This document shows positions 33,977-54,509 of a DNA stretch of 64,000 nt, one piece after another. The stretch comes from Sphingobacteriales bacterium (lineage in GTDB: Bacteria; Bacteroidota; Bacteroidia; UKL13-3): the NCBI GenBank assembly GCA_021299635.1, contig JAJTFA010000002.1, positions 249,110 through 313,109 of the forward strand, given 5' to 3'. The notes under the pieces are model-generated. The model was not told the DNA's origin. It saw nothing but the letters and a program-made list of their open reading frames with translations, and ran no database searches. A program made the position numbers and the translations under genes. Numbering within the stretch: position 1 is the first letter of the stretch; each line of letters starts with the position of its first letter.

Positions 33977-35899
33977 CTATGCGCTCACTCTTTCTACAAT
34001 GAGTTGTTTCACGGTTTGCATAATTGCTGTAGCATCAAAGCCGCACTCTGCATATAGTTCTTTTTGTTCTCCATGCTCAATAACCGCATCCGGCATGCCC
34101 AGCATTTTTACCTGTGTATGGTATCCGTATTTTGCCATAAACTCTAGCACTGCACTACCTGTGCCACCTACAACGGTTCCATCTTCTACAGTAACTATCT
34201 TTTTGTAATTGGTAAATACTTCGTGTAGCATCTCTTCGTCCAATGGTTTAACAAAACGCAAATCATAATGACCAACGGAAATACCTTCTTCTGACAGTTG
34301 GTTGGCAGCTTGTGCGGCAATATTTCCAATATGGCCAATGGTTAATAAAGCCAACTCATCACCATCGCGCAATTTACGGCCCTTACCAATCTCCAACTCT
34401 TTAAATGGTGTTTTCCACTCAGGTATTACTCCGTTGCCACGCGGATAGCGTATGGAGAAAGGACCTGCATTTTTTTCAAGCGTTGCCGTATACATCAAGT
34501 TACGTAACTCTTCTTCGTTCATCGGAGCACTTACCACCATATTAGGTACGCATCTCATATATGGGATGTCTATCATGCCATGATGCGTAGGTCCGTCTGC
34601 ACCGGCTAGGCCTGCTCTGTCCATACAAAATATTACATGTAGTTTTTGCAAGGCCACATCATGCACTACCTGATCATATGCACGCTGCATAAATGATGAG
34701 TAGATATTGCAAAAAGGAATTAACCCTTGTGTTGCAAGTCCTGCACTAAAAGTTACTGCATGCTGCTCTGCAATGCCTACATCAAAGGCGCGTTTAGGCA
34801 TGGCCTTCATCATGATATTCATGGAAGAACCAGAAGGCATAGCAGGTGTAATGCCTACAATTTTTTCGTTTTTCTCAGCCAATTCAACCAAGGTATGTCC
34901 AAATACATCTTGGTATTTTGGTGGTTGCGGCTTATCTGAAACAGATTTATATATTTCACCGGTTACTTTATCAAACAAACCCGGTGCATGCCATTTGGTT
35001 TGGTCTTTTTCTGCCAGGGCATAACCTTTACCTTTTACGGTAACACAATGCAATAATTTAGGTCCGGGTATTTTCTTTAAATCATTCAACACTTTAACCA
35101 TATGGTTTACGTCATGCCCATCAATGGGGCCAAAATAACGGAAGCGCAATGATTCAAACATATTGCTGTGCTTAAGCACACCAGATTTTATAGTATCATG
35201 CACCTTTGAAAGAATATCTTGAGATATATGCCCGATTTTGTTCAGCCGATCAAGCGCCTTCCAAACATCATCTTTAAATTTATTATAAGTAGGTGAGGTA
35301 GTAATATCGGTTAAATATTCCTTGAGTGCGCCTACATTTGGGTCTATACTCATGCAATTGTCATTCAGCACCACAATGAGGTTAGAGTCTTCTACACCTG
35401 CATGGTTCAGGCCCTCAAAGGCAAGTCCTGCGGTCATGGCACCATCGCCTATAACAGCAATATGTTGGCGGTCTGTTTCACCTTTAAGCCTGGAAGCAAC
35501 AGCCATGCCTAGCGCAGCTGAAATAGAAGTGGATGAGTGACCCACACCAAAAGTATCATACTCACTTTCGCTGCGTTTTGGAAAACCCGAAATACCTTTA
35601 TAAACCCTGTTTGTATGGAAAACATCTCTACGGCCCGTAAGTATTTTATGGCCATATGCCTGATGGCCTACATCCCAAACCAATTGGTCGTAAGGTGTAT
35701 TAAAGGCATAATGCAGGGCCACGGTTAGTTCCACCACGCCCAAACTGGCACCAAAGTGGCCCCCGTAAACAGAGACCATATCAATGATATATTGCCTTAA
35801 CTCGGCACATACCTTTACCAAGTCCTCCTCCTTAACCTTGCGTAAATCAGCAGGATAATGAATGGGGCTTAGCAGTTCTCCCGGTTTTATTTCCATCAT
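33977..35899 (-). CDS. dxs: 1-deoxy-D-xylulose-5-phosphate synthase
   Basis: 640 aa. ThDP motif ...GDGAMTAGLAFEGLNHAG..., transketolase-like domains. Confidence 0.9.
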   Translation of the reverse strand: MMEIKPGELLSPIHYPADLRKVKEEDLVKVCAELRQYIIDMVSVYGGHFGASLGVVELTVALHYAFNTPYDQLVWDVGHQAYGHKILTGRRDVFHTNRVYKGISGFPKRSESEYDTFGVGHSSTSISAALGMAVASRLKGETDRQHIAVIGDGAMTAGLAFEGLNHAGVEDSNLIVVLNDNCMSIDPNVGALKEYLTDITTSPTYNKFKDDVWKALDRLNKIGHISQDILSKVHDTIKSGVLKHSNMFESLRFRYFGPIDGHDVNHMVKVLNDLKKIPGPKLLHCVTVKGKGYALAEKDQTKWHAPGLFDKVTGEIYKSVSDKPQPPKYQDVFGHTLVELAEKNEKIVGITPAMPSGSSMNIMMKAMPKRAFDVGIAEQHAVTFSAGLATQGLIPFCNIYSSFMQRAYDQVVHDVALQKLHVIFCMDRAGLAGADGPTHHGMIDIPYMRCVPNMVVSAPMNEEELRNLMYTATLEKNAGPFSIRYPRGNGVIPEWKTPFKELEIGKGRKLRDGDELALLTIGHIGNIAAQAANQLSEEGISVGHYDLRFVKPLDEEMLHEVFTNYKKIVTVEDGTVVGGTGSAVLEFMAKYGYHTQVKMLGMPDAVIEHGEQKELYAECGFDATAIMQTVKQLIVERVSA

Positions 35900-37856: not shown

Positions 37857-38387
37857 GTGAAAAAACTATTCATCTTTGCAATTGCCTTTTTCATGGCGCT
37901 GGCATCATGCCGCAGCAAAAAAAAAGCAACGCATGGTTTAAGCAATAGAGATAAGGCAGAAAGAAAGACCTATTTTGAAAATAAATATGGTGTTGCATTT
38001 GACAGAGAAACCAACCACAAACTTTACATGGCCATTGATGTATGGTATGGTACCCCCCATAAGTTAGGCGCATGTGAAAAAAGTGGCATTGATTGCTCTT
38101 GTTTTGTAAACAGGGTTTTTAAAGAAGTGTATGATTGCGATACTCCTCGCGATACGAAGGGGTTGATGGAAGCAATCAAGCAAATTGACAAAGAAAAATT
38201 AAGGGAGGGCGATTTGGTTTTCTTTGCGATGAATAAAGGCAGTAAGGTTGATCATGTAGGCATCTACTTGAGTAGCGGGAAATTTGTGCATACCTCCAGT
38301 AAGAGAGGGGTAATGGTAAGTAGTTTGGACGAACCACATTTTGAGAAAGCGTTTAAAATAAGTGGAAGGCTAAAATGTTCGGGCTAG
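37857..38387 (+). CDS. NlpC/P60 (C40) family lipoprotein peptidase
   Basis: GTG start. Lipobox MALASC. Catalytic Cys context GIDCSCFVNRVF and His in DHVGIYL. Confidence 0.7.
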   Translation: MKKLFIFAIAFFMALASCRSKKKATHGLSNRDKAERKTYFENKYGVAFDRETNHKLYMAIDVWYGTPHKLGACEKSGIDCSCFVNRVFKEVYDCDTPRDTKGLMEAIKQIDKEKLREGDLVFFAMNKGSKVDHVGIYLSSGKFVHTSSKRGVMVSSLDEPHFEKAFKISGRLKCSG

Positions 38388-38512
38388 GTTGCAAAGGAAT
38401 GGAAGTTTGTTTTATGGAGCTTAGTTGTTGTATAACCGGTTAAAAAAATCATGATGTTTAGGGTTGTACTTACTCAGCTTTCAATACATACCCTTCCAAT
38501 GAGACTTAGACT

Positions 38513-39676
38513 TTAGTCTTCCAGATATACTTCTTCTGCAAAAACAGGCGCATTATACTTCTCGAGCACTGCATCTTTTTGCTCTTCAAGATTTACAGCA
38601 TACCTGAGTCCAGCGCCTTTGCCTATAACCTTAACCAGGTTTTGATCAACCAGGGCGGTAAAATCTCTTTGTATGGTTTTTCTGTTGCAGTCAAACTCAC
38701 TCACCAGATCTTTTGTAGAAATAAAGCCTTTATGTTGTATAATATACATGATGAGTTTTTGGCGCTTGTTTAGGATGCTTTCATCTATTTCTCTTAGCCG
38801 ATATCCGCGCTCAAAAACATAGTTCATGATATTTTTCTGACGTGGATTTAATTGTTCAAAATCTATTTGTTTTCTGAAATAGGAACGAAGCAATAATTTA
38901 AGACGGTTTAGTTGTGCTGCATACAAATCAGTGCCAAAGTCAAGCTCTTTTTGTATGCTGTTTACATTTTCCTGCGGAGTTTCTGTGCGATTTTCAATAA
39001 AGAAGTTTTGGTATTCATTCTTATTCAGATACAACTCATGCTCAATACTAATCAATCCCAGCAAATCCATTCCCTTCTTTCTAAGCCAGAAATTTTGAAG
39101 CAGTGATGCTATTTTACTTTTTGCCTCAGAAAAAATACGTGTATTAAGCAATTTGAAATGTAAAATCCAGGATTGAATAATGGGGTGCTGCTCTTCATCC
39201 TGATTCAGGTACTCAAATAGACCTTCCAGTTCAAGCTCAGCTGTAGGACTTAGTTTCTCAGGACTACGCAGGCTGTTTACGGAGAATAGGTTTATATCTT
39301 CACGGTTATTATATAAATCAAGTATCAGCAGTTTTTGAAGCTGATAAAGCATAGATACATGCAAAGGCTGGTCTAATTGTGAATTAAGCCAAGCCTCTGC
39401 TTTCATATATTGTTCCACGCCTCTTTCAGCCAAACCCTTCGGCCTCATTTTACCCTGAACAATATATTTTACTGTTTTTATATCAATGATATTGTGATCT
39501 AGCGCATTGGCGTAATAAGTGCGCAGAATTAGAGAGTTTTGCTGCTCTATCTGCCTGATATGATCAGGCAAATCAATGAAGTCATGTATTTTGATGAGCT
39601 CTTCATGCTGATGAAAACAGTCATAGTGTTTTGCATCAATAGCTATAGCAGGCTCAAACTTATTGATTAATATCAC
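38513..39676 (-). CDS. hypothetical protein with C-terminal winged-HTH DNA-binding domain
   Basis: 387 aa, GTG start. C-terminal ~60 aa (GFISTKDLVSEFDCNRKTIQRDFTALVDQNLVKVIGKGAGLRYAV) is DeoR/Fic-associated wHTH-like. No canonical HPFx(D/E)GNGR Fic motif. Confidence 0.5.
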   Translation of the reverse strand: MILINKFEPAIAIDAKHYDCFHQHEELIKIHDFIDLPDHIRQIEQQNSLILRTYYANALDHNIIDIKTVKYIVQGKMRPKGLAERGVEQYMKAEAWLNSQLDQPLHVSMLYQLQKLLILDLYNNREDINLFSVNSLRSPEKLSPTAELELEGLFEYLNQDEEQHPIIQSWILHFKLLNTRIFSEAKSKIASLLQNFWLRKKGMDLLGLISIEHELYLNKNEYQNFFIENRTETPQENVNSIQKELDFGTDLYAAQLNRLKLLLRSYFRKQIDFEQLNPRQKNIMNYVFERGYRLREIDESILNKRQKLIMYIIQHKGFISTKDLVSEFDCNRKTIQRDFTALVDQNLVKVIGKGAGLRYAVNLEEQKDAVLEKYNAPVFAEEVYLED

Positions 39677-39856
39677 TCATCCAAAAGTACATGCATTATA
39701 TATGCGGTGTAGACTGAGTACCTCTCAAACAGTTGTGGATATTGGTATTTTAGAGATAGGCAAGGTTTAACAATTTCTTAAGATGCCCGAAAACATTAAG
39801 AAACACGGGATTTAAAAAAATAGACACGCCTCTAAAACGGCTGTTAATAATTGTTG

Positions 39857-41392
39857 TTATAAGGTTTCTAGCGTTTGCAGATAATCTTCTGCTTGCTTAA
39901 GTATCTCCTGCTTTTCTGCACTGGCCATTTTGTTCAAGACCTGATACATCATGGATATACGTTGATTGTTGCTTAATAGGTTTCTGTTGCGCTCGTAAAA
40001 GTGCCAGTACAAACTATTAAACGGGCAGGCTTTATCGCCATGTTTTTTCTTTTTATCATAATAACATCCCTTGCAGTAATCGCCCATTTTATCAATGTAA
40101 TTGGCAGATGAAATATAAGGCTTGCTGCCTACTATTCCCCCATCGGCAAACTGACTCATGCCTCGTGTATTGGTAACTTCAACCCATTGCAGCGCATCTA
40201 TATAAATACCCAGATACCATTTGTCCACTTCATCCGGATGGATTCCGGCAAGCAGCGCAAAGTTGCCTGTAACCATTAATCGTTGTATATGATGTGCGTA
40301 GGCATTTTCTAAACTGTTATGTACTGCCTGTTTCACGCAATTCATTTTGGTTTCTCCGTTCCAGAAATAGCCGGGCAATTGGGTTGAGTGGTTAAAGAAA
40401 TTTAGTGTTTCATAGGCCGGCATTTTCCACCAGTAAATACCCCTCATATATTCACGCCAACCAATGATTTGCCTTGCAAATCCTTCTATCTGAGGTAAGC
40501 TGATGTTTTCAGGATTTTTCCTCCACGCCTCAATAGCTGTATGAACTACTTCTGCAGGAGAGAGCATTTTTGTATTAAGTGCAAAAGATAAACGTGAGTG
40601 AAACAAAAATGGCTCCTGAACAGACATGGCATCCTGGTAGGTTCCAAAATAGGGCAAATGATGTGCAACAAAATATTGTAGCAACTGCAGCGATTGTTTG
40701 CGCGAAACCGGCCACAGGAATGCTTCAGGTTGTATACTGCCTATATATTTAATGCCACTGTTTTTTATTTCCGCTGTAACCTCTGATACATCATTTTTTA
40801 CTATATCATATGCAGGTGCAGCGGGTGTGCCAGTCCATTTTTTTCGGTTTTCGGAATCATAGTTCCATTTACCACCAATGGGCTCTGTGCCATCCATCAG
40901 TATACCATATTGTTTTCTGATTTGCCTGTAAAATGTTTCCATCAGAATTTGCTTCTTGCCTTCAAACAAATCTTTTACCTGCATGCGGGTACTCATAAAA
41001 TGTTCGGTATCAAAAGAGCGGTATGGAATGGATAGACTTTCGCAAAATAGCCGGAGTTGTTCATCAATACGCCATTCATCAGGTAACTGGTATTGAAATT
41101 CCTGAATGCGATATTGTTTAATAAGCTGAGATAAATTTTCGGCTAGTATATGTTTATTGGAAGAATCATTGATGGTATAATAAATTACCTGATGACCTGC
41201 TTGTTCCAGCGTTTGGGCAAAGTTGCGCATTGCTGTAAAAAAACCAGCAAGCTTTTGTATGTGATGCGTTACATAATCTGTTTCCTGCCGCATCTCAAAC
41301 AAGCAGTAAATATGTGATTCATTTACCTCTTGAAACCAACTGTGCTGTTCGTTTAACTGATCACCTAAAATTAGCCTAAGCGTTTTAGCCAT
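39857..41392 (-). CDS. FeS-containing bacterial cryptochrome/photolyase (FeS-BCP; PhrB/CryB-like (6-4) photolyase family)
   Basis: 511 aa, MAKTLRLILGDQLN... C-terminal DYCKGCYYDKKKKHGDKACPF gives C-x2-C-x12-C plus an upstream Cys (MNCVKQA), matching the 4-Cys [4Fe-4S] ligand spacing of PhrB. Confidence 0.8.
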   Translation of the reverse strand: MAKTLRLILGDQLNEQHSWFQEVNESHIYCLFEMRQETDYVTHHIQKLAGFFTAMRNFAQTLEQAGHQVIYYTINDSSNKHILAENLSQLIKQYRIQEFQYQLPDEWRIDEQLRLFCESLSIPYRSFDTEHFMSTRMQVKDLFEGKKQILMETFYRQIRKQYGILMDGTEPIGGKWNYDSENRKKWTGTPAAPAYDIVKNDVSEVTAEIKNSGIKYIGSIQPEAFLWPVSRKQSLQLLQYFVAHHLPYFGTYQDAMSVQEPFLFHSRLSFALNTKMLSPAEVVHTAIEAWRKNPENISLPQIEGFARQIIGWREYMRGIYWWKMPAYETLNFFNHSTQLPGYFWNGETKMNCVKQAVHNSLENAYAHHIQRLMVTGNFALLAGIHPDEVDKWYLGIYIDALQWVEVTNTRGMSQFADGGIVGSKPYISSANYIDKMGDYCKGCYYDKKKKHGDKACPFNSLYWHFYERNRNLLSNNQRISMMYQVLNKMASAEKQEILKQAEDYLQTLETL

Positions 41393-41406
41393 ATTTGCTG
41401 CAGGTT

Positions 41407-42018
41407 TTAGGGTTTGGCATAAGGCAGCTCTTCAATTTTAGATAGGCGGTAATATGTTTCCAATCCACCTGCACCAATGCTGCCGCTATTTCCCAGTTGC
41501 AGGATATTGGATTCATTTACTAAATCCTGCTCCAGTATAATTTCTTGCACTTTACCAATCATTAAAATGGTTCCGTTTGCTTTAACAGGAATTTCCTCCT
41601 CTAATGTGAGCCCTATTTTTACGAGGGATTCTTTTACATAGGGAGCTTTGATAGCTGGTGTATATTCCGGTGTAAGCCCTGTTGCTTCAAACTCACTGAT
41701 GGCATAACGGGCAGAGGTTTGATGAGCCTGCCTGTAAATGCCTTCGTGCACATGGTTAATGGTAAAGCAACCCGTTTGTTTAAGATATTCGTAGGTATGA
41801 CGTTCCACACTTACAGGACGCATAATAAATCCCATGAGTGGTGGATTGGCACCGATATGAACAACTGAATTGAAAATAGCCAGATTGGTGATGCCGGCCT
41901 CATTGATGGTACCTATGAGATTGGCTGCGCGGATGCCGGGCAATGAATTGATTAAATTGGTTCTGGGTTGTTTATCCATTCCCAATATATCTGATAAAGT
42001 AATTATGGTTCTACTCAT
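41407..42018 (-). CDS. flavin reductase-like (FMN-binding split-barrel) protein
   Basis: 203 aa with Flavin_Reduct-like domain (..LIGTINEAGITNLAIFNSVVHIGANPPLMGFIMRP..). ATG confirmed at 42016-42018. Confidence 0.65.
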   Translation of the reverse strand: MSRTIITLSDILGMDKQPRTNLINSLPGIRAANLIGTINEAGITNLAIFNSVVHIGANPPLMGFIMRPVSVERHTYEYLKQTGCFTINHVHEGIYRQAHQTSARYAISEFEATGLTPEYTPAIKAPYVKESLVKIGLTLEEEIPVKANGTILMIGKVQEIILEQDLVNESNILQLGNSGSIGAGGLETYYRLSKIEELPYAKP

Positions 42019-42025
42019 GTATGGC

Positions 42026-42712
42026 TTATCTTATGGCTTGCATGCCACCGTCAACTGGTATAATCTGACCGGTAATCCAATTGGCATTTATGAGAAATAG
42101 TGCTGCATCAGCTATATCATCCGGTGTTCCAATTTTTTTCAGCGGGTGTCTTTCTTCTGCAGCCTTAATTTTTGCTTCTGCATTTAATAACTTTTCTGCC
42201 AGCGGTGTTTGTGTAAGCGATGGAGCAATGGCATTCACCCTTATTTTGGGTGCAAACTCTGCAGCAAGGCTTCTGGTTAGGCCTTCAATGGCTCCTTTTG
42301 CTGCACTGATGCTTGCATGGAACGGCATGCCTGTTTGCACGGCAACGGTACTAAATAAAGTAATACTTGGTGCAGTTGCCTGTTGCAGTTGAGGTAAATA
42401 ATGCCGTATGGTTTTTATGGCACCCAATACATTGATGTTCCAGTCGTTTAAAAAATCCTCGTTTTTTATTGAGCGAAAAGGTTTGAGTGAAATGGTACCG
42501 GGGCAGTAAATCAGCGCATCAATGGGTTTATCTATTGATGGGAAATCCGGATTATCTTGTGCTATATCAACCATAAAATGATTTATACCATTTCCTGCGT
42601 TTAGGTTTCCAGAGGTTCTGGAAAGTGCTGTAATTTCATGTGTTACGCTCAGCTTTTTGGCAAGTGCGCCACCAATGCCACTGCTTGCCCCTATCATTAA
42701 TGCATGCTTCAT
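42026..42712 (-). CDS. SDR-family short-chain dehydrogenase/reductase
   Basis: MKHALMIGASSGIGGALAKKL (TGxxxGxG), catalytic Y-x3-K in ...ASISAAKGAIEGL... Start moved to the ATG at 42712. Confidence 0.8.
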   Translation of the reverse strand: MKHALMIGASSGIGGALAKKLSVTHEITALSRTSGNLNAGNGINHFMVDIAQDNPDFPSIDKPIDALIYCPGTISLKPFRSIKNEDFLNDWNINVLGAIKTIRHYLPQLQQATAPSITLFSTVAVQTGMPFHASISAAKGAIEGLTRSLAAEFAPKIRVNAIAPSLTQTPLAEKLLNAEAKIKAAEERHPLKKIGTPDDIADAALFLINANWITGQIIPVDGGMQAIR

Positions 42713-42732
42713 ATACAAGTAACATCCTTTAA

Positions 42733-43872
42733 TTAAAAAGGTTTGCCATGTGTTTTGCCAATGAGCCACTGCGTTACGAAGGGCATGGGCTTAAGTGCAG
42801 AAACAGTTAGGTTGGTTAGCAGTGGGTTGCCAAATAATCCTTGAATAAAACGGCCTGCTTTAAGCCTACCTGCAAATTCTCTGTTCCAAGCTTCAAGGTA
42901 TGCTGCTATCAGTTCTTTTTTACGTTTATTCGGTTGTTTGTATTGCTTTATTAAGCCCGCCAAAATAAAGGACGCATGCATGGCCATGCTCATACCGTTG
43001 CCGCATAGGGGTGTAATAAGTCCTGCTGCATCGCCTGCAAACATTAGGTTGCCTGCATGGCTACTTTTTTTTTCAAAACTTATTTGTGAAATAACCAGCG
43101 GCTTATCATATATAAAACGCGCACGCTTAAAAATCAATTTCAAAAAAGGGTTTTTATGCAGCACCTCTGCTTCCATTTGACTGATGTCTCCATTTCTGTT
43201 TTTAAGTTGGGTTGCAGTGGTGAGGTAGCATAAGCAATAGGTATTGTTTTCAACTTTAGAAATACCGCAATAGCCATTTTCAAAATTATGCAAGGCAATG
43301 CGGTTTTCCGGTTCATCAATTTCAATATGGTATTTTACGCCAATAAAGTCGTTTAGTCTGCGTTGTGTTGGCTGTATAAAAGGGCGATTGAGTTTCACAT
43401 CCAAGTTGGCGCGTTTGCCCCAGGCGCCAAAAACAAGTTTTGTGTTGAAAGCTTCATGCAGTGTTTGCACTTCTGATACATCTGCAGCCTCTCGTATATC
43501 AGTAACTTTGGCATTGCATAAAACAGTTACACCCACCTCAAGAGCTTTTTTATAGAGCAGATGGTCGAGCATATAACGACTGATGCCAAATCCCCCCTGA
43601 TGCAGTGGTTGGGTTAAATAATTGCCTGAAGGTGCCGATACCAGCAATTGGTTAATACGTGGTAACTGCAGCTCACGCAGTGGAACACCAAGGCGCTCCA
43701 GAAATGGCCAGCTCTCCATGCTGATGTACTCACCGCAAACTTTATGAAACGGATAGTTTTCCTTCTCAAACAAAATGGTTTGCAATCCCTGTTGTTGCAG
43801 TTGTATGGCAAGCGTTAACCCGGCAAGTCCACCACCAATAATAGCCGCATCATATGTTGTTTGTGTACTCAT
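42733..43872 (-). CDS. FAD-dependent oxidoreductase/monooxygenase (geranylgeranyl-reductase/halogenase-like fold; SrsC-like position)
   Basis: YDAAIIGGGLAGLTLAIQL (GxGxxG) and GDAAGLITPLCGNGMSMA (GD motif). The ATGA overlap with the upstream methyltransferase stop is at 43869-43872. Confidence 0.75.
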   Translation of the reverse strand: MSTQTTYDAAIIGGGLAGLTLAIQLQQQGLQTILFEKENYPFHKVCGEYISMESWPFLERLGVPLRELQLPRINQLLVSAPSGNYLTQPLHQGGFGISRYMLDHLLYKKALEVGVTVLCNAKVTDIREAADVSEVQTLHEAFNTKLVFGAWGKRANLDVKLNRPFIQPTQRRLNDFIGVKYHIEIDEPENRIALHNFENGYCGISKVENNTYCLCYLTTATQLKNRNGDISQMEAEVLHKNPFLKLIFKRARFIYDKPLVISQISFEKKSSHAGNLMFAGDAAGLITPLCGNGMSMAMHASFILAGLIKQYKQPNKRKKELIAAYLEAWNREFAGRLKAGRFIQGLFGNPLLTNLTVSALKPMPFVTQWLIGKTHGKPF

Positions 43873-44573
43873 TTATTTGCACCGGGTATTAGCACTATCC
43901 ATCTGAAAGCCCATTGCCATGTAAGTGTATATACCGGTATGCGCGCTGCCTTGAGGATTTGCAGCCACTCTTGTTTTTTAAAACCCCGTAATACTGATAA
44001 TGGTGCATCATTTTTAACAAGGTATGAGCGGGAAAATAGGCGTGTTAGCCATGCAATACTATAATAAGCAAAAGGGTGGCGGTGCAGATCATTAATGATA
44101 ACGGCCTGTTTGGCCATTTTAACAGACCATTGGATTAATTCGGAGATTTCTTCGTCAGCCAGGTGGTGACAAAACAAGGCATTTACTACCACATCGGCTT
44201 CAATATTTTCCTGAAGCAGTTTTCTATAATCATTTTTAATCAGGCTTATTTCAGGATATGCAGCGCATGCCTTTATTGCATAATTAATGCAATCTTGCTT
44301 CAGATCTACTCCGGTAAGTTTTACCGATAGTTTTTTTGCACGAGCCCATTTAGCAATTGCTTTTAGTGTATCTCCGCCTCCGCAACCGATATCCAGAATA
44401 TGAACAGTTTTATAGGTTGGCAGAGATAACTGATTGAGTGCAGCAATGGTAGCTGCATGGCCTCCCAAAAGTGTATTGATGATGTCCAGCTCAAGCAGAT
44501 TTCTGTTGAGTGCATCAGCCGGAATATCGGATGCATCCAGCAGTTCTTTTTGTTTGGAGCGTGCGTTAAACAT
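43869..44573 (-). CDS. class I SAM-dependent methyltransferase (SrsB-like position)
   Basis: SAM motif I ILDIGCGGGDTL. First ATG at 44573; the tracked TTG is at 44582. Confidence 0.8.
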   Translation of the reverse strand: MFNARSKQKELLDASDIPADALNRNLLELDIINTLLGGHAATIAALNQLSLPTYKTVHILDIGCGGGDTLKAIAKWARAKKLSVKLTGVDLKQDCINYAIKACAAYPEISLIKNDYRKLLQENIEADVVVNALFCHHLADEEISELIQWSVKMAKQAVIINDLHRHPFAYYSIAWLTRLFSRSYLVKNDAPLSVLRGFKKQEWLQILKAARIPVYTLTWQWAFRWIVLIPGANK

Positions 44574-45654
44574 GTTTTTCAAATAAAAAACTTTCCATGG
44601 TTAAGCCGGGGCCAAAGGCCACACCAAACGTTTTACCTGTTTGATTGGACTGAAGCAGTTTTTTAAGTACAAATAAAATAGTGGCACTGCTCATGTTACC
44701 ATAATTACGCAGCACTTCATAAGAAGCATCCAACGCTTGTTTAGGTAATTTTAGTTGTGATTGAATGACATCCAGGATTTTTCTTCCTCCCGGATGAATA
44801 GCCCACAATTCAATATCATCAAGTGTTAATTTCCCTCTCAGGCATTGATTAAAAAGTGTTTCAATATGCTGCTCAATTAATGAAGGTATATAAGCACTGA
44901 GTGTCATCAGAAATCCTTCAGAAGAAATATGCCATGTCATGTCTTTTTCACCGTTAGGTATGATTTCGCTGTAAAAATCAATCAATTCAAAATAGGGCTC
45001 TTTACAAGCATCTCGGTAAGCATCTCCGGCAATCACACATGCTGCTGCTCCATCGGCAAATATAGCATTGGCTGTAAGGTTATCAGCGCTTGGATTTTTC
45101 TGAAAGTGTAACGTGCACAGTTCAACAGAAACAATCATAACCAATGCATTTTTATTAGCAGTGCAAATGGCATGTGCCTGTTTAAACGCATGTATCATGG
45201 CATAGCAGCCCATGAAATTTACGGAGGTACGATTGATATTGCTGGGCAGGTGCAGACGTTTAACCAACTCAATATCCAAACCGGGAGCTGACATACCCGT
45301 GCAAGACACTGTAATGAGGTGGGTAAATGATTGTTCATTCTCACCTGGTATTGACTTAAGGCAATTGTTAATCGCTGCTTCTGCCAGCGTTGTGGCATGT
45401 TCATGATAACAGGATAATCGGCTTGTTACATCCGGTTGTAATCCATCTTTAAATAGTTCCTTTTTGGGTTGGTTAACATCAAAGTCGGGTATTACGCTGT
45501 ATCGATAGTCAATTCCACTTCGCTCATACATGAGTTTTAAACGCTGCAGATCCGTTACTTCCGGATTGTACTGCGATTTCATGTAAGAAAAAATAACTGA
45601 TTGGCTATGCTTATATTTTGGCATTGCCGTATCTATTGACCAAATGAAACTCAT
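44566..45654 (-). CDS. type III polyketide synthase (chalcone/stilbene-synthase superfamily; alkylresorcinol/alkylpyrone synthase-like)
   Basis: Catalytic triad contexts NFMGCYAM (Cys), AIHPGGRKILD (His), GNMSSATI (Asn), plus C-terminal FGPGLT. ATG at 45654 overlaps the upstream ubiA-like stop (ATGA). Confidence 0.85.
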   Translation of the reverse strand: MSFIWSIDTAMPKYKHSQSVIFSYMKSQYNPEVTDLQRLKLMYERSGIDYRYSVIPDFDVNQPKKELFKDGLQPDVTSRLSCYHEHATTLAEAAINNCLKSIPGENEQSFTHLITVSCTGMSAPGLDIELVKRLHLPSNINRTSVNFMGCYAMIHAFKQAHAICTANKNALVMIVSVELCTLHFQKNPSADNLTANAIFADGAAACVIAGDAYRDACKEPYFELIDFYSEIIPNGEKDMTWHISSEGFLMTLSAYIPSLIEQHIETLFNQCLRGKLTLDDIELWAIHPGGRKILDVIQSQLKLPKQALDASYEVLRNYGNMSSATILFVLKKLLQSNQTGKTFGVAFGPGLTMESFLFEKHV

Positions 45655-46499
45655 TGAATTATATTTGATATGATGAGAGAAAGGAAAAATAAATTTAATA
45701 AAACTGATGCAAGCGCATTCATTCGCATGGTGTGTGTAAAATCTGCATATATTACGTTTTCCCAAACCTTACGTAACCAGTAAAAAAAATAAATCAGAAC
45801 CGGACTCAGTAAACCCTGAAGCAACCAAAACTTCCATAATGATTCCTGAAATCTTATATAAAACAAAATCATGGCACATACAAAGCAAATGGCAGTAAGT
45901 AAAAATGTGCCGCGGTAGCCAAGCATCATACTCATGGTATGCACACCATCTTTTCTATCGGCATCATGCTGATAAATTTGTGTAAGCGGGTATACTCCGG
46001 CTATGAGCAACGAAGAAATGCAAAGTCCGTTTAAGTCGGGAAGGGTATTACCTGCAGAATGACAGGTAAGCATATAAATCCAGGCTCCCTGAAAAATCAC
46101 AACAGTAAGGTAGCCTGCCAGAGCAAATTTCTTTAGCCTAATTCTTTTGTAGCTATATGCACGAGATATAAGGATATACATCAATACAAAAAGGGCACTT
46201 CGTAAACCAAGCAGTAAACTAAGTAAAACAGCCACTGTATCCATTATTGCACTCAGGTAAAATACTTTTTTATCTGCTTTTGGCGGATGCTTTAAGCCAC
46301 CAATGGGTCCTTCATCCTGATCCATAAAACTATTATATGCGTTGCTAGCCGGATACACCAGTAAGTGAAGAATAGTAAAGAGAAGAAGTGCATGGTAACA
46401 TGAAATGGTTTGCAAACCGCTTAATGCGAATAGAAAAACGGGAAGCAAAAAAAATGAAAAAGGTAAACGAAGCAGTTGTAAATTCTTGGCTGATATCAT
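45651..46499 (-). CDS. UbiA-family aromatic prenyltransferase (polytopic membrane)
   Basis: Two Asp-rich motifs, NAYNSFMDQDEGPIGG and YQHDADRKDG. ~8 TM helices. First ATG at 46499; TTG at 46502. Confidence 0.75.
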   Translation of the reverse strand: MISAKNLQLLRLPFSFFLLPVFLFALSGLQTISCYHALLLFTILHLLVYPASNAYNSFMDQDEGPIGGLKHPPKADKKVFYLSAIMDTVAVLLSLLLGLRSALFVLMYILISRAYSYKRIRLKKFALAGYLTVVIFQGAWIYMLTCHSAGNTLPDLNGLCISSLLIAGVYPLTQIYQHDADRKDGVHTMSMMLGYRGTFLLTAICFVCAMILFYIRFQESLWKFWLLQGLLSPVLIYFFYWLRKVWENVIYADFTHTMRMNALASVLLNLFFLSLIISNIIQ

Positions 46500-46689
46500 C
46501 AAGGGAAAATACGGTTTATTCTTAATGTTTGCTTAAAAAAATAATATTAAGAGAAATTAAAGAAGTCTGTAATGCCTGATTTTAAACGCTTTTTAAGATT
46601 TTTATAATCTGATTACATATCATCAAGAGTCTATGGCAAAGAAAGCATGTAGGATTTCATAACTTTGAAAAAGCTAATTATTAAAGCTT

Positions 46690-47409
46690 ATGCAAAAGGA
46701 ACAATCACCTCATTTGCTTTTGGTTGAAGATGAAGTTACGTTGGGTTATTTTTTAAAAGAACGACTTAAACTAAGTGGTTATAGCATTAATCTTTGCCGT
46801 GATGGCGAAGAGGGTTGGAATACATTTAGAACAGGAAAATTTGATTTGTGTATTCTGGATGTAAACATGCCTAAAAAGAGTGGCTATGAATTGGCAAAAG
46901 ATATCAGAGGTATTAATCCGTTTGTTCCGATTATTTTTTTAACAGCCAATTCTGCTGAGGAAGATCGTTTAAAAGGATTTGAACTCGGGGCAGACGAGTA
47001 TATTGTTAAACCTTTCAGCACAGATGAACTTGTGGCGCGTATCAAAGCAATACTCAGAAGATCTCAGTATGCACCCCCAGTAATAAACCCTAAGGAGGAA
47101 ATAAAAAAAATAGGAAATCTGGAAGTAGATTTTATTAATCATTGCATTAAAATTAATGGTGGTGAGAAAAGAATGAGCACAACAGAGGCCGAGTTGTTTA
47201 AACTTTTCGTTGATCATAAAAATAATTTACTAACACGCAATTCTATTTTAATCAATGTTTGGGGGCGTGATGATTACTATACCGCACGCAATCTGGATGT
47301 ATACATTAATAAGTTGCGAAAAATATTAAAGGAAGATCCTTTGCTTGAAATAGTGAATATTCACGGTGCAGGGTTTAAACTTGTAGAAAATATTGCCAAC
47401 CAGACGTGA
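46690..47409 (+). CDS. two-component response regulator, OmpR/PhoB-type winged helix
   Basis: Receiver domain (LLVEDEVTLG..., ...CILDVNMPKKSG...) plus a trans_reg_C-like C-terminus. Confidence 0.85.
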   Translation: MQKEQSPHLLLVEDEVTLGYFLKERLKLSGYSINLCRDGEEGWNTFRTGKFDLCILDVNMPKKSGYELAKDIRGINPFVPIIFLTANSAEEDRLKGFELGADEYIVKPFSTDELVARIKAILRRSQYAPPVINPKEEIKKIGNLEVDFINHCIKINGGEKRMSTTEAELFKLFVDHKNNLLTRNSILINVWGRDDYYTARNLDVYINKLRKILKEDPLLEIVNIHGAGFKLVENIANQT

Positions 47410-49448
47410 AACACATACTGCTGTTTTTAAGCCTCACTGTATTTTATTTTACCTGCACTTTTGCGCAAGGCTTTAATAAGGATAGTATCTTGCAGATAGC
47501 ACAACAGGCTCCTGATAAAGAGAAGCAGCAAGCATTACAACTCCTCATTCAATATTATAAGAACAACGATCCGCAAACTGCGCTTCAATATGTGATGCAA
47601 CAGATTGAGGTTAGCCAGCGCATAAATGATGAGGCCACATTAGCAAAAGCATATCAGAATGCAGGCATACTTAGTTTCAGGGTAGGTAATTTTCAGCGGG
47701 CAAAAGAATTTTACCTGCAGGCGCTCGAAAAATTTACACAACAGCGAAATACCGATGCGCAAAATGAAGTAAACAGCTATCTGGGTGCCGTTTATTATGC
47801 AAACGGTAATTTGCCACTTGCTGCAGAAACCTACCTGAAGGCCCTGCGCTATTATGAGGAAAAGAATGATAAGGCTGCACTGCTTAATATTTTAAGCTCA
47901 CTTGGAAGTATTTATTCCAGACAAAATAATTTTTCAAAGGCTTTGGAGTATAACCTCAGGGCTTTGCGCATTTACGAAGAATCTTCTGATCGTTTCCGCA
48001 CCCTTGTCGGATATGATAATATTGGCAACATATATCTGCGGCAAGGTAATTTGCAGAAGGCAGAAGAGTTTTTTAATAAATCATTACTGGTATACCGTGA
48101 GCTGAATAACAAGGCAGGTGAAGCATCTACACTTTATCAACTGGGTACCATAGCCGATAAGCAGAACGATATAGAGCAATCCATCGTATACTACGGGCAA
48201 TCTATTGAAATGGCAAAAGCCATTAAAGCGCAACCCATGCAGGCTACAGCTGAGCTTGCGCTGGCTAATAACCTGAGTAAAATTAAACTTTATCAGCAGG
48301 CTATTACTTCCTATCAAAATGCAATACGCTTGGCGAAACAACTGGAGATGAAAATTGAACTGGAGGAAGCATACAGGGGTATTTCACAGTCATATGCTGC
48401 TATTAAGCAACAGCAAAAGGCCACAACATTTGGTGAATTGAGCAGGGAGTTAAAGGATTCGTTATATAACGACAGTAATATTAAAAAGCTTGCTGATTTA
48501 CAGTTGGTGTATGAAACGGAAAAAAAGCAACAGCAAATAGAATTGCTATCTAAAGAGCAGCAACTGCAGGAATTGGAATTAAAGCGTGAGCGGGAGTCAA
48601 AGAATTTCTGGGCTTATGCTTCAATTGTGCTTACCATTGTTTTTGTGGTACTCATTTATTTTTCTGTTCAAAATAAACGCATAGCCAACAACCTTCGCAG
48701 GCAAAAGGAAGAGCTAGAACAAAAGAATGCAGAGGTGCTGGCACAAAAAGAACAGCTCAATCAGTTGAATAATGTTAAGGACCGTTTCTTTTCTATCATC
48801 TCTCATGATTTAAGAAATAACCTTGCTACTATGAAGTTGTATTTTGATTTAATTAGTCATCCCAATTATAAACCTGCTGATCATTCAGAAGCAACCAAGC
48901 AAATTTCAGCTTCAGTTGAGAATACCATCGATTTGCTGGAGAATTTGCTTGTGTGGGCTTCTGCGCAAATAAAGGGAGTGCCCATTCATATACAGAAGCT
49001 GCAACTACACTCACTAATACAGGGGAATGTCAATTTACTTCAAGGTAATGCCCATCAGAAAAAAATTAGCATAGTAAACAATGCAGATGAGCTGGCATGC
49101 GCAATGGGCGATATGGACATGATTCATTTGGTTTTACGTAATCTTATTTCTAATGCAATTAAGTTTACAAATGATGGTGGTACTATTCAAATTAGCAGTG
49201 AAGAAAAAAATGGCAAACAAATTATCTGTATTCAAGATAATGGGGTAGGCATAAGCAAAGAAAATTTATCAAAACTCTTTAATCAGCATTTACATCCTAG
49301 CACCAAAGGAACAGGCAACGAAAAAGGCACCGGGTTAGGGCTCATGCTTTGTCAAGATTTTATGGTGCGCAACCAAGGCGCTATCAGAGTAGAGAGTGAA
49401 AAAGGCAAGGGTACGTCATTTTATATTGAGTTACCGATGGCTGGTTAA
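47406..49448 (+). CDS. sensor histidine kinase with N-terminal extracytoplasmic TPR-repeat sensor domain
   Basis: GTG start overlapping the RR stop (GTGA). Signal peptide, ~7 TPR-like repeats (AKAYQNAGIL..., ...GAVYYANGNL...), coiled coil, one TM (FWAYASIVLTIVFVVLIYF), H-box FFSIISHDLRN, HATPase_c (GTGLGL). Confidence 0.85.
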   Translation: MKHILLFLSLTVFYFTCTFAQGFNKDSILQIAQQAPDKEKQQALQLLIQYYKNNDPQTALQYVMQQIEVSQRINDEATLAKAYQNAGILSFRVGNFQRAKEFYLQALEKFTQQRNTDAQNEVNSYLGAVYYANGNLPLAAETYLKALRYYEEKNDKAALLNILSSLGSIYSRQNNFSKALEYNLRALRIYEESSDRFRTLVGYDNIGNIYLRQGNLQKAEEFFNKSLLVYRELNNKAGEASTLYQLGTIADKQNDIEQSIVYYGQSIEMAKAIKAQPMQATAELALANNLSKIKLYQQAITSYQNAIRLAKQLEMKIELEEAYRGISQSYAAIKQQQKATTFGELSRELKDSLYNDSNIKKLADLQLVYETEKKQQQIELLSKEQQLQELELKRERESKNFWAYASIVLTIVFVVLIYFSVQNKRIANNLRRQKEELEQKNAEVLAQKEQLNQLNNVKDRFFSIISHDLRNNLATMKLYFDLISHPNYKPADHSEATKQISASVENTIDLLENLLVWASAQIKGVPIHIQKLQLHSLIQGNVNLLQGNAHQKKISIVNNADELACAMGDMDMIHLVLRNLISNAIKFTNDGGTIQISSEEKNGKQIICIQDNGVGISKENLSKLFNQHLHPSTKGTGNEKGTGLGLMLCQDFMVRNQGAIRVESEKGKGTSFYIELPMAG

Positions 49449-52999: not shown

Positions 53000-53461
53000 A
53001 TGTCAGTTTTTAAAGCAGAAGGTGTTACGCTGGAAGCCATAAATAAGAGAAATGAGAATACAATGGCTCAATGGATAGGTATTGAGTTTACCGAATTAGG
53101 GGTGGACTATCTAAAGGCACGGATGCCAGTAGACCATCGAACAGTTCAACCATTACATGTGGTGAATGGAGGTGCATATTGTGCACTGGCCGAAACAGCT
53201 GGTAGCATGGCAGGTAATCTTTGTTTAGACAGAGAACGATATGTTGCCCTAGGATTAGATATCAATGCCAATCATGTACGCTCAGCATCTAAAGGATTTG
53301 TGCATGGTACGGCAAAACCAATTCATCTGGGACGCACCACTCAAGTGTGGGAAATTCGTATAACTGATGATGAAGATAGGTTATGTTGCATTAGTAGACT
53401 AACCATGTCGGTGATAGAAATTAAACATGATAACAGAGGATTCAATCCGCCAAAGGTTTAA
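53000..53461 (+). CDS. hotdog-fold thioesterase (PaaI/DHNA-CoA thioesterase-like), likely menaquinone-pathway-associated
   Basis: ...QWIGIEFTELGVDYLKARMPVDHRTVQPLHVVNGGAYCALAETAGS...; adjacent to menF. Confidence 0.7.
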   Translation: MSVFKAEGVTLEAINKRNENTMAQWIGIEFTELGVDYLKARMPVDHRTVQPLHVVNGGAYCALAETAGSMAGNLCLDRERYVALGLDINANHVRSASKGFVHGTAKPIHLGRTTQVWEIRITDDEDRLCCISRLTMSVIEIKHDNRGFNPPKV

Positions 53462-54509
53462 GCAGGGTGAGCAATTTAATTTTGCTGCATGCAGGTTGCC
53501 CTTCTCGGATACGATATACTTTTTCTATTCTGACAGGCCTTGCAAACTGACTCGTTTGCAATATCAAGCCAACTCATTAACAGATTTTGTTTTCTCGCCT
53601 TATGCTGCCGGTAACCAGGCTTATCATATGCAGGCCAATCTCATATATAAAAATGATGCGCCTATTTACGGATGGGATGCCAAACTCATGCCGGTAGAAA
53701 AACCATTATTCACTACGAATAATTTTGAAGCGGATGAGAATTTTTATAAAAGATATGTTTCTGATATCATCACAGATATCGAACAGGAGGATACAGACAA
53801 AGTTGTAGCAGCTCGTGCATTGCGAAGAGCATTGCCTGATTCATTCAGCCATTCAAATTTCTTCTTTCAATTATTGCAGCAATATCCGCATGCAATGGTT
53901 TATTATGTAAATCATGCTGAGTGGGGATGTTGGTGTGGAGCTACACCTGAAATGTTGCTAACAGCGACAGAAAATAAACTGCAAACCATGTCGCTTGCCG
54001 GAACCATGCCTGCACATTCTAAAGAAGCGTGGGGCGAAAAGGAGCTGCAGGAGCAAGCTATGGTCACTGATTTTATTGAACAGATTTTTGAAAAGTATCA
54101 GCTTACTATTCAGATAAATCAAACAAGCGAGTTGGTTTCAGGAAAAATTAAACACCTGTGCACAAAACTAGAATCGAAAACAGATGAGGAATGGCTCACC
54201 CAAAAATTTCATAAGTTACTGGCTGACTTAAATCCAACGCCTGCCGTTTGCGGCATACCCCAATTCAATGCATCTGTTTTTATAGGCAAGCACGAAAAAC
54301 TTGAACGCAGATTTTATAGTGGTTTTTTAGGAATTAGTGCGCCTAAGCACATTCAGTTATATGTTAATTTGCGTTGCATGGAAATAGGCTTGCAGGATGC
54401 TTTATTATATGCCGGGGCAGGAATAACAGCATATTCCTCCCCGACAAAAGAGTGGCAGGAAACTATTAATAAATTAATGGTTTTGGGTAGTATAATTAAT
54501 GACGTATAA
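53427..54509 (+). CDS. menF: isochorismate synthase (menaquinone-specific)
   Basis: Chorismate-binding C-terminus (...GFLGISAPKHIQLYVNLRCMEI...AGAGITAYSSPTKEWQET...). The start overlaps the thioesterase 3' end by ~35 nt and is uncertain. Confidence 0.75.
   Translation: MITEDSIRQRFKQGEQFNFAACRLPFSDTIYFFYSDRPCKLTRLQYQANSLTDFVFSPYAAGNQAYHMQANLIYKNDAPIYGWDAKLMPVEKPLFTTNNFEADENFYKRYVSDIITDIEQEDTDKVVAARALRRALPDSFSHSNFFFQLLQQYPHAMVYYVNHAEWGCWCGATPEMLLTATENKLQTMSLAGTMPAHSKEAWGEKELQEQAMVTDFIEQIFEKYQLTIQINQTSELVSGKIKHLCTKLESKTDEEWLTQKFHKLLADLNPTPAVCGIPQFNASVFIGKHEKLERRFYSGFLGISAPKHIQLYVNLRCMEIGLQDALLYAGAGITAYSSPTKEWQETINKLMVLGSIINDV

Follow-up and report, generated by a model that had tools for sequence, protein, structure and literature searches.

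Organization of the locus

Six consecutive minus-strand genes occupy positions 41407-46499 of the window, the 64,000-nucleotide stretch of Sphingobacteriales DNA analyzed here (Table 1). Open reading frames together with Pfam and NCBIfam matches bear out the gene order and coordinates given in the first-pass annotation, and the same six genes are called independently on public contigs that carry an identical PKS. Judged from the coordinates, the first four genes overlap one another, by 4 nt for UbiA and PKS (the PKS start codon overlaps the UbiA stop in the sequence ATGA), 8 nt for PKS and methyltransferase (MT), and 4 nt for MT and FAD oxidoreductase. Gaps of 20 nt and 7 nt separate the FAD oxidoreductase from the SDR and the SDR from the flavin reductase, respectively, and no terminator-like site was found in either gap. 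Because a (6-4) photolyase gene continues in the same direction 14 nt downstream of the flavin reductase, spacing defines a putative operon of seven genes. The six-gene operon proposed earlier therefore names genes that are all present, but spacing alone does not justify leaving out the photolyase.

Table 1. Genes in and around the PKS cassette, with positions in the window.
Feature	Position	Strand	Remarks
UbiA-superfamily membrane prenyltransferase	45651-46499	minus	first gene of conserved cassette; PF01040
Type III PKS, predicted long-chain alkylresorcinol synthase	44566-45654	minus	Chal_sti_synt_N and _C
Class I SAM-dependent methyltransferase (MT)	43869-44573	minus	Methyltransf_25; NCBIfam PRK06202
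FAD-dependent oxidoreductase, GGR-like PHBH fold; predicted phenol-ring hydroxylase	42733-43872	minus	FAD_binding_3
SDR, adjoins cassette; SDR-flavin reductase pair	42026-42712	minus	adh_short_C2
Flavin reductase, second gene of autonomous pair	41407-42018	minus	PF01613
FeS-BCP/CryPro (6-4) photolyase; unrelated to polyketide chemistry	39857-41392	minus	PF04244
OmpR/RprY-type response regulator, divergent	46690-47409	plus	
TPR-HisKA sensor kinase, divergent	47406-49448	plus	

Conservation of the gene neighborhood

We counted gene conservation in 85 diverged loci whose PKS is 45-56% identical; L numbers denote individual loci. The gene immediately upstream of the PKS is UbiA in 61 of 63 diverged loci, the MT follows the PKS in 45 of 52, the FAD oxidoreductase is present in 49 of 52, and both MT and FAD oxidoreductase follow the PKS in 45 of 52. 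Gene order is rearranged in L030, with UbiA still in the cluster, and a natural UbiA::T3PKS fusion of 652 aa is encoded by Dyadobacter sp. 32 as well as by five other assemblies. The cassette is widespread in Bacteroidota, across Chitinophagaceae, Cytophagales, and uncultured freshwater and soil Bacteroidia, with named genomes including Flavihumibacter, Sediminibacterium, and Algivirga. Because this unit recurs in dozens of diverged loci, the arrangement of the first four genes is far beyond chance, and the functional unit is UbiA-PKS-MT-FAD oxidoreductase (42733-46499, minus strand). Its adjacency to the PKS in diverged loci and the Dyadobacter fusion make UbiA a core part of the pathway, in support of the first-pass annotation, which had included it.

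That annotation had also added the SDR and flavin reductase to the pathway, and conservation of the flanking genes as a unit, which holds for the four cassette genes, fails for these two. The pair follows the cassette in only 1 of 37 diverged loci, and the SDR is absent from 36 of the 37. L013 and L015 share the flanking genes and carry the cassette but lack the pair. Conversely, orthologous pairs with 56-70% identity occur in three loci without PKS, MT, or FAD oxidoreductase (L098, L104, and L105), the first of which has lost the cassette, retaining a decayed UbiA relic and the intact pair, and L099 holds the flavin reductase alone. The photolyase travels with the pair in L014, L097, L098, and L105. 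Compared with L007, the pair is 91-93% identical, whereas the core genes are 77-84% identical. The SDR and flavin reductase are thus a separate conserved pair, often accompanied by the photolyase and merely next to the cassette; the pair may share a transcript with the cassette, but the pathway does not need it. Within this lineage, it stands between cassette and FeS (6-4) photolyase.

The absence of the pair beside most cassettes and its independent persistence make a single six-gene biosynthetic operon, as originally envisaged, improbable. In such an operon, the FAD enzyme would obtain its reduced flavin from the flavin reductase and the SDR would reduce the polyketide or prenyl moiety, giving a product more reduced than those of the srs or agq type. 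The co-directional genes and their short, terminator-free gaps are consistent with this arrangement, as is the same layout, with the pair adjoining the cassette, in the moderately diverged L014, L097, and L103 (PKS 52-54% identical, core proteins only 50-57% identical). The FAD enzyme also lacks a DG motif (class A, NAD(P)H-binding), which would allow the neighboring flavin reductase to supply it, and FADH2-dependent two-component halogenases are among its closest relatives of solved structure. The spacing argument, however, would equally enroll the (6-4) photolyase, and the greater conservation of the pair relative to the core weighs against the six-gene reading.

Among the neighboring proteins, matches to solved structures were obtained for the flavin reductase (PDB 3fge, E 8e-55) and the photolyase (PDB 7ykn, E 3e-164; PhrB and CryB, E about 1e-124). 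The canonical YxxxK tyrosine is absent from the SDR. On the other side of the cassette, the divergent response regulator and sensor kinase are kept upstream in L008, L013, L014, L015, and L097; of the two, the response regulator is still present in L027 and L103. Both are also retained in L098, which has no PKS, and hence they are not cassette-specific; the two-component pair (46690-49448) represents lineage-conserved neighbors and a possible regulator.

Sequence features of the cassette enzymes

The UbiA protein scores 60.8 bits against PF01040 (cutoff 34.2) and contains at least five strongly hydrophobic segments. Among 33 UbiA orthologues, Asn53, Asn56, Ser57, Asp60, and Asp181 are invariant and Asp62 is nearly so; these conserved residues sit in the motifs N-S-x-x-D-x-D-E and Y-Q-H-x-x-D. 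Among proteins of solved structure, ApUbiA (4od4) comes closest, with an E-value of 2e-3.

The PKS contains both expected domains (Chal_sti_synt_N, E 4.5e-24; Chal_sti_synt_C, E 2.3e-27), and the Cys/His/Asn triad noted earlier is present as Cys150, His287, and Asn320, all invariant in 33 homologues. Its best PDB sequence matches, Ectocarpus PKS1 (4b0n), 7cb3, Steely1, and PKS18, are all long-chain-acyl T3PKSs. The invariant Trp241 aligns with Gly256 of CHS, a Leu in PKS18, and a Trp in Steely1, and a Trp also occupies this position in the other MT/FAD-linked PKSs examined. Through the alignment to CHS Gly256, we take Trp241 to be equivalent to ArsB Trp281 and presumably to match the marker of resorcinol formation reported by Satou et al. 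2013. One of the closest relatives of solved structure, PKS18, makes pyrones, which would suit a PKS that makes alkylpyrones or another non-resorcinol product, with UbiA acting on an unrelated substrate and the clustering reflecting only shared membrane-lipid physiology. We regard this as very improbable, given that PKS18 has Leu where Trp241 agrees with the other MT/FAD-linked enzymes, that UbiA and PKS show translational overlap here and form one fused protein in Dyadobacter, and that an MT and a flavoenzyme typically accompany the PKS in alkylresorcinol pathways.

The MT matches NCBIfam PRK06202 with an E-value of 2e-47, yet falls below the family cutoff, and Methyltransf_25 was also matched. 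Over its full length, it is 27-32% identical to T3PKS-adjacent methyltransferases of Paludisphaera, Deinococcus, Psychrobacter, and Novosphingobium.

The role of the FAD oxidoreductase is ambiguous. The protein carries GxGxxG at residue 13 and GDAA at residue 280, and its sequence lacks a WxWxIP motif as well as the DG motif. Its predicted structure (AF2, pLDDT 87) places TaGGR (3oz2, TM 0.78) among the top fold matches, and a Foldseek search with this model does not separate flavin halogenases, GGR, and UbiI. Hydroxylase, halogenase, and reductase are thus not separable by fold search. The oxidoreductase of planctomycete clusters is likewise without a demonstrated role (PMC10896814).

The enzyme could conceivably be a C=C reductase of the MenJ/geranylgeranyl reductase (GGR) type, with which it shares a PHBH-type fold and a K-x-C-G motif containing an invariant Cys. 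It would then saturate part of the prenyl chain that UbiA attaches, without adding a third oxygen to the ring, and the cassette would make a (dihydro)prenylated alkylresorcinol methyl ether rather than a hydroquinone or quinone. Geranylgeranyl-reductase TIGR02032 is indeed the best NCBIfam match, aligned over nearly the whole protein; Cys46, invariant and GGR-type, lies in a K-V-C-G-E stretch resembling the GGR PxCGG motif; several homologues are named menaquinone-9 beta-reductase by JGI; and the agq products bear a dihydrogeranyl group. The TIGR02032 score of 101 bits nevertheless falls below the curated cutoff of 158.8, and the YxWxFP-like motif of GGRs is not conserved. Homologues also occur in clusters without an isoprenoid substrate, adjoining T3PKSs that lack a UbiA in Novosphingobium, Paludisphaera, and Psychrobacter, and, in another case, following an isonitrile synthase and a TauD dioxygenase in an isonitrile cluster. 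In these contexts, a phenol ring is the only plausible substrate, which renders the reductase assignment unlikely and favors a ring hydroxylase.

Predicted product and related operons

Taking the FAD enzyme as a ring hydroxylase, the cassette would act as follows. The PKS would extend a long-chain fatty acyl thioester primer with three malonyl units and close the ring by aldol condensation, yielding a 5-alkylresorcinol. The flavoenzyme would add a third ring oxygen, the MT would methylate the ring, and the membrane-embedded UbiA would attach an isoprenoid chain. The expected product is a membrane-resident phenolic lipid of the alkyl, methoxy, prenyl hydroquinone or quinone type. We assign a probability of roughly 60% to the proposal that the four-gene cassette makes a prenylated, methylated alkyl-phenol membrane lipid, every chemical step of which we infer from the genes. 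The product probably resembles lipids known from actinomycetes.

The locus is best read as an uncharacterized representative, in Bacteroidota, of the T3PKS phenolic-lipid/alkylquinone operons already known, with its chemistry predicted by analogy. The PKS, MT, and FAD oxidoreductase are full-length homologues (37.5%, 28%, and 23% identity) of an MT-oxidoreductase-T3PKS trio on a Paludisphaera plasmid, which upholds the earlier assignment of this core to the srs/pkq/hid type. In planctomycetal operons of this gene order, the PKSs make C15/C17 alkylresorcinols (PMC10896814), and T3PKS-MT-hydroxylase operons produce alkylbenzoquinones (PMC9927152).

In enzyme content, the cassette is what agqABCD, or srs/pkq/hid with UbiA added, would look like in Bacteroidota. 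Two reports describe the characterized agqA-D cluster of Actinoplanes missouriensis (Awakawa 2011) as comprising a T3PKS, a monooxygenase, a methyltransferase, and a UbiA (PMC7692728, PMC4044012), as yielding alkyl-O-dihydrogeranyl-methoxyhydroquinones (PMC7692728), and as using its UbiA-type enzyme to O-prenylate a small polyketide (PMC4044012). The likeness is one of enzyme class (type III PKS, flavoprotein oxygenase, methyltransferase, and UbiA-type prenyltransferase in one cluster) and would extend to the predicted logic, from alkylresorcinol through hydroxylation and methylation to prenylation. Because agqABCD holds the same four enzyme classes, the earlier description of the product as not obviously described was overstated. 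The window differs from agqABCD in belonging to Bacteroidota rather than Actinomycetota and in placing UbiA first, translationally coupled to the PKS.

The alkylresorcinol, alkylquinone, and polyketide-quinone operons srsABC (Streptomyces griseus) and pkqABC (Mycobacterium smegmatis, Streptomyces sp. MNU77) resemble the window in gene order, with PKS, MT, and oxidoreductase in the same succession on one strand, and the window PKS has Trp at the resorcinol-marker position; unlike the window, they have no UbiA. The hidABC genes of picocyanobacteria (hierridins) share the arrangement of the planctomycete trio homologous to the window PKS, MT, and flavoenzyme. The order in hid and planctomycetal operons is MT-oxidoreductase-PKS, as opposed to PKS-MT-oxidoreductase in the window, identity is low, and UbiA is lacking save for one cyanobacterial UbiA-T3PKS cluster, noted as unique (PMC8086630). 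UbiA genes adjoining T3PKS clusters have also been noted in Micromonospora and Jiangella.

Gene content and conservation of the cassette

The first-pass annotation had proposed a six-gene operon at 41407-46499. Analysis of the open reading frames with Pfam and NCBIfam confirmed six closely packed minus-strand genes of the families it named, and the same six genes are called independently on public contigs that carry an identical type III polyketide synthase (PKS). Neighboring genes overlap by 4-8 nt at the UbiA/PKS, PKS/methyltransferase (MT), and MT/FAD oxidoreductase junctions, while the downstream gaps measure 20 nt (FAD oxidoreductase-SDR), 7 nt (SDR-flavin reductase), and 14 nt (flavin reductase-photolyase). 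A seventh co-directional gene, encoding a (6-4) photolyase, had been left out at first pass; spacing as the sole criterion would give a seven-gene string with a DNA-repair enzyme last. A promoter and terminator scan of positions 38300-47000, using a tool whose model does not include Bacteroidota promoters, returned counts no higher than the shuffle expectation and none in the intergenic gaps. Neither Rfam families nor tRNA genes were found anywhere in the window. The sequence belongs to an uncultured Bacteroidia lineage of fresh water; its G+C content is ~40%, and its closest genomes are lake MAGs.

Positions, strands, and supporting matches of the features discussed, in the window or in the locus named
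Feature	Sequence	Position	Strand	Support or context
UbiA-family prenyltransferase	window	45651-46499	-	PF01040, 60.8 bits (cutoff 34.2)
Type III PKS	window	44566-45654	-	both chalcone/stilbene synthase domains (Pfam)
Class I SAM methyltransferase	window	43869-44573	-	Pfam/NCBIfam
FAD-dependent oxidoreductase	window	42733-43872	-	top curated match TIGR02032 (geranylgeranyl-reductase family)
SDR	window	42026-42712	-	Pfam/NCBIfam
Flavin reductase	window	41407-42018	-	PF01613
FeS-BCP (6-4) photolyase	window	39857-41392	-	PDB 7ykn, E 3e-164
SDR-flavin reductase-photolyase string	window	39857-42712	-	
387-aa protein with DeoR-type HTH	window	38513-39676	-	
DXS (MEP pathway)	window	33977-35899	-	within 7 kb of the cassette
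DHNA-CoA hydrolase-like thioesterase and isochorismate synthase (menaquinone pathway)	window	53000-54509	+	within 7 kb of the cassette
SprA	window	55821-62981		type IX secretion (T9SS)
UbiA relic	L098	5376-6236		
Isonitrile synthase cluster with flavoenzyme homologue	L094	2030-7044		
ACP-ketosynthase-type III PKS-FAD monooxygenase string	L095	2389-6032		

To measure conservation, we assembled 85 diverged loci whose PKS is 45-56% identical to that of the window, and searched all window proteins against them. The loci came from metagenome contigs (at least 573 relatives), from species genomes (including Algivirga), and from contigs that encode individual homologues (Flavihumibacter rivuli and Sediminibacterium among them); each count takes in solely the loci with sufficient flanking sequence for that feature. 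The UbiA gene ends at the PKS start in 61 of 63 loci, and the PKS is followed by the MT in 45 of 52, by the FAD oxidoreductase in 49 of 52, and by both in 45 of 52. By contrast, the SDR, flavin reductase, and photolyase genes follow the cassette in one locus out of 37. Conservation as a unit in related genomes, to which the first-pass annotation had tied its proposal, thus holds for UbiA-PKS-MT-FAD and fails for the two remaining genes. The variants encountered preserve the pathway logic: the MT is absent from four cassette loci, UbiA is relocated behind the oxidoreductase in one (L030), and a single 1.86-Mb metagenome contig carries two cassettes (L062 and L077), whose PKSs are 75% identical and one of which has no MT. 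A scan of species-genome contigs with the window PKS as single query yielded 5 loci; one of these, from Nocardia (L010), was rejected because its cluster, which is PKS18-like and contains a cytochrome b5-desaturase, is unrelated. The cassette is a genuine, well-conserved biosynthetic unit, an uncharacterised Bacteroidota representative of a known kind of pathway, and the correct cluster boundary for genome-mining tools and readers is four genes rather than six.

The SDR-flavin reductase pair

Six loci were reached from flavin reductase homologues. L097 carries the cassette, the pair, and the photolyase in a window-like arrangement, and L103 has the cassette and the pair with the photolyase absent. 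L098 retains the pair, the photolyase, and the window's flanking two-component system and DeoR-type regulator, with PKS, MT, and oxidoreductase missing; L105 has the pair and photolyase without a cassette, L104 has the pair only, in another neighborhood, and L099 has the flavin reductase only. L098 also contains a decayed UbiA gene (33% identical, first Asp-rich motif lost, without a Pfam match), which is the footprint of a lost cassette. Conversely, L013 and L015 have window-like flanks and the cassette, with the pair absent. When the window is compared with locus L007, the pair is 91-93% identical and the cassette 77-84%. Because the pair and the cassette each occur alone, and because the pair is the more conserved of the two relative to L007, we conclude that the pair is an autonomous unit outside the conserved pathway, which in the window lineage happens to sit between the cassette and the photolyase. 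The suggestion that the SDR and flavin reductase are dedicated tailoring enzymes is not sustained, given the 1/37 association, the loci with the pair but no PKS (L098, L104, L105), and those with the cassette but no pair (L013, L015), and the six-gene boundary is two genes too many. Co-transcription and a local functional link between the pair and the cassette may nevertheless occur, the latter being conceivable because the cassette flavoenzyme lacks the class-A DG motif.

The SDR-flavin reductase-photolyase genes form a recurrent co-directional string (L014, L097, L098, L105), found in related Bacteroidia both with and without the PKS cassette. That a flavin reductase neighbors a flavin-dependent photolyase may point to a functional connection between the two, for instance in reducing the cofactor or in responding to light. 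The window SDR and all eight orthologues examined share the motif F/Y-H-[AS]-[SG]-I-[SA]-[AV]-A-K. The Tyr of the canonical YxxxK is missing, and the Lys is preceded by a His at a distance of 7 residues, a FabI-like spacing; for an SDR, this active site is atypical.

Enzymes of the cassette

The Chal_sti_synt N and C domains of the PKS score 85.6 and 96.3 bits, against a Pfam cutoff of 27. Its Cys/His/Asn triad, recognized at first pass, is confirmed as C150, H287, and N320, which do not vary among 33 PKS sequences and fall in the same alignment columns as the PKS18 and CHS triads. The nearest solved structures, Ectocarpus PKS1, Steely1, and PKS18, are all of enzymes that use long acyl chains. 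Trp241 is likewise invariant; the aligned residue is Gly256 in CHS, Leu in PKS18 (a pyrone synthase), and Trp in Steely1, and this column may correspond to position 281 of ArsB. Trp also occupies the column in the MT/FAD-neighboring PKSs of Paludisphaera, Deinococcus, Psychrobacter, and Novosphingobium (4/4). The marker of resorcinol formation is Trp281 of ArsB, in place of which the pyrone-forming ArsC has Gly (PMC9927152).

The window UbiA protein and 33/33 orthologues match PF01040, and the window protein has hydrophobic segments as expected of a multi-pass membrane protein. Asp60 and Asp181 are invariant and Asp62 nearly so among the 33 orthologues, while the motifs of the window protein are spaced NxxxDxD and DxxD, as opposed to the canonical NxxxDxxxD and DxxxD. 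Sequence searches against the PDB and against plasmids found no match for UbiA, and the sole PDB match of a profile search was ApUbiA (E 2e-3). A search of 1.84 billion proteins gave 726 representatives of the subfamily at E ≤ 1e-3 and 199 at the stricter E ≤ 1e-30; the subfamily is small, narrow, and distinct. A natural UbiA::T3PKS fusion of 652 aa is encoded by Dyadobacter sp. 32 (P0366, WP_149244224.1), and it is full-length in this RefSeq genome and in five more assemblies, with identical length in all six. The 61/63 linkage, the narrow subfamily, and this fusion together indicate that UbiA is an integral partner of the PKS, to which it is probably coupled physically. Five remoter subfamily members (P0423, P0449, P0455, P0497, P0501; 35-39% identity) are extended at the C-terminus by ~210-270 aa; the extensions have no Pfam match and are weakly alike among them.

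Three motifs are invariant in the FAD-dependent oxidoreductase: V-C-G-E-Y, GGFGxSR, and GDxxGxIxPLCGNGMS. Its AF2 model (pLDDT 87) retrieved flavin halogenases, TaGGR, and UbiI/UbiH in Foldseek with roughly equal scores, and because these match alike the fold leaves the chemistry undecided. Although halogenases are its top fold and sequence matches, identity as a flavin-dependent halogenase was rejected, as WxWxIP is absent and Lys44 is missing from both the invariant and the 90% lists of 40 sequences. A serious rival is a MenJ-like prenyl reductase: the best curated family match is the geranylgeranyl-reductase family, whose Cys motif is conserved here, but the score falls under the family cutoff (101 versus 158.8 bits), and homologues adjoin type III PKSs in clusters that contain no prenyltransferase. 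A further homologue, 44% identical, lies downstream of an isonitrile synthase and a TauD/TfdA dioxygenase on Hymenobacter swuensis plasmid pHsw1 (L094). Since homologues sit in prenyltransferase-free PKS and isonitrile clusters, and in view of the motifs, the most economical reading is that the enzyme is a phenol-ring hydroxylase, a prediction that constitutes the least certain step of the pathway.

The slot of the flavoenzyme on pHsw1 is that of the phenol hydroxylase in pvc-like pathways. A PKS-MT-oxidoreductase cluster in Deinococcus was set aside as evidence on this enzyme, as its flavoenzyme is of a different, class-A UbiH-like type. On Novosphingobium pentaromativorans pLA3 (L095), a type III PKS lies between a dedicated ACP and ketosynthase, which appear to deliver the starter unit, and an FAD monooxygenase of the same family as the window flavoenzyme (25% identity).

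Known pathways, predicted product, and neighboring genes

The first-pass comparison of the PKS-MT-FAD core to srsA-srsB-srsC is borne out in gene order, and pkqABC has the same order. The window PKS, MT, and flavoenzyme also have full-length homologues in a Paludisphaera plasmid trio (37.5%, 28%, and 23% identity; MT E 1e-17, oxidoreductase E 6e-15 over 314 aa), which is arranged MT-oxidoreductase-T3PKS, the hid gene order. Planctomycetal PKSs of such operons, which are related to cyanobacterial hidABC, make C15/C17 alkylresorcinols (PMC10896814). The agqABCD cluster of Actinoplanes missouriensis yields alkyl-O-dihydrogeranyl-methoxyhydroquinones and encodes together the same four enzyme classes as the cassette, namely a type III PKS, an oxygenase, an MT, and a UbiA (PMC7692728, PMC4044012). 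The UbiA extension, whose product was put forward at first pass as not obviously described, already has a described counterpart. Membership in the agq type rests on gene content, while membership in the hid type rests on measured homology. UbiA genes beside type III PKS clusters had earlier been noted in Micromonospora, Jiangella, and one cyanobacterium; within the library searched, we found no characterised Bacteroidota T3PKS-UbiA cluster.

In the proposed pathway, the PKS would form an alkylresorcinol that would undergo ring hydroxylation, methylation, and prenylation, giving a membrane phenolic lipid or hydroquinone. Bacteroidota are regarded as users of menaquinones only. It is conceivable, though we consider it unlikely, that the product is an alkylated, prenylated methoxy-benzoquinol serving aerobic Bacteroidota as a second electron carrier in the membrane, with a higher potential. 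Such a quinol would be the Bacteroidota analogue of mycobacterial and Streptomyces polyketide quinones, with the PKS probably coupled physically to the membrane prenyltransferase and, in Dyadobacter, fused with it. If the pathway prediction is true, a prenylated phenolic lipid that has yet to be isolated would be present in many soil and freshwater Bacteroidota, with at least 573 related metagenome loci. Phenolic lipids of this sort in other phyla function in membrane stiffening, antibiotic tolerance (Srs), and electron transport (PkQ), and for this reason the cassette offers a well-delimited system in which the membrane physiology of Bacteroidota can be put to the test.

Genes for DXS, isochorismate synthase, and a DHNA-CoA thioesterase were considered as a precursor or quinone link and rejected, since other genes occupy those positions in loci with the same flanks; their nearness to the cassette is probably a coincidence. 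The window also encodes SprA of type IX secretion. The 387-aa protein downstream of the photolyase has its DeoR-type HTH at the C-terminus and an N-terminal region of 300 residues without a family match, and it is conserved downstream in all loci with window-like flanks, regardless of the presence of the cassette or the pair.
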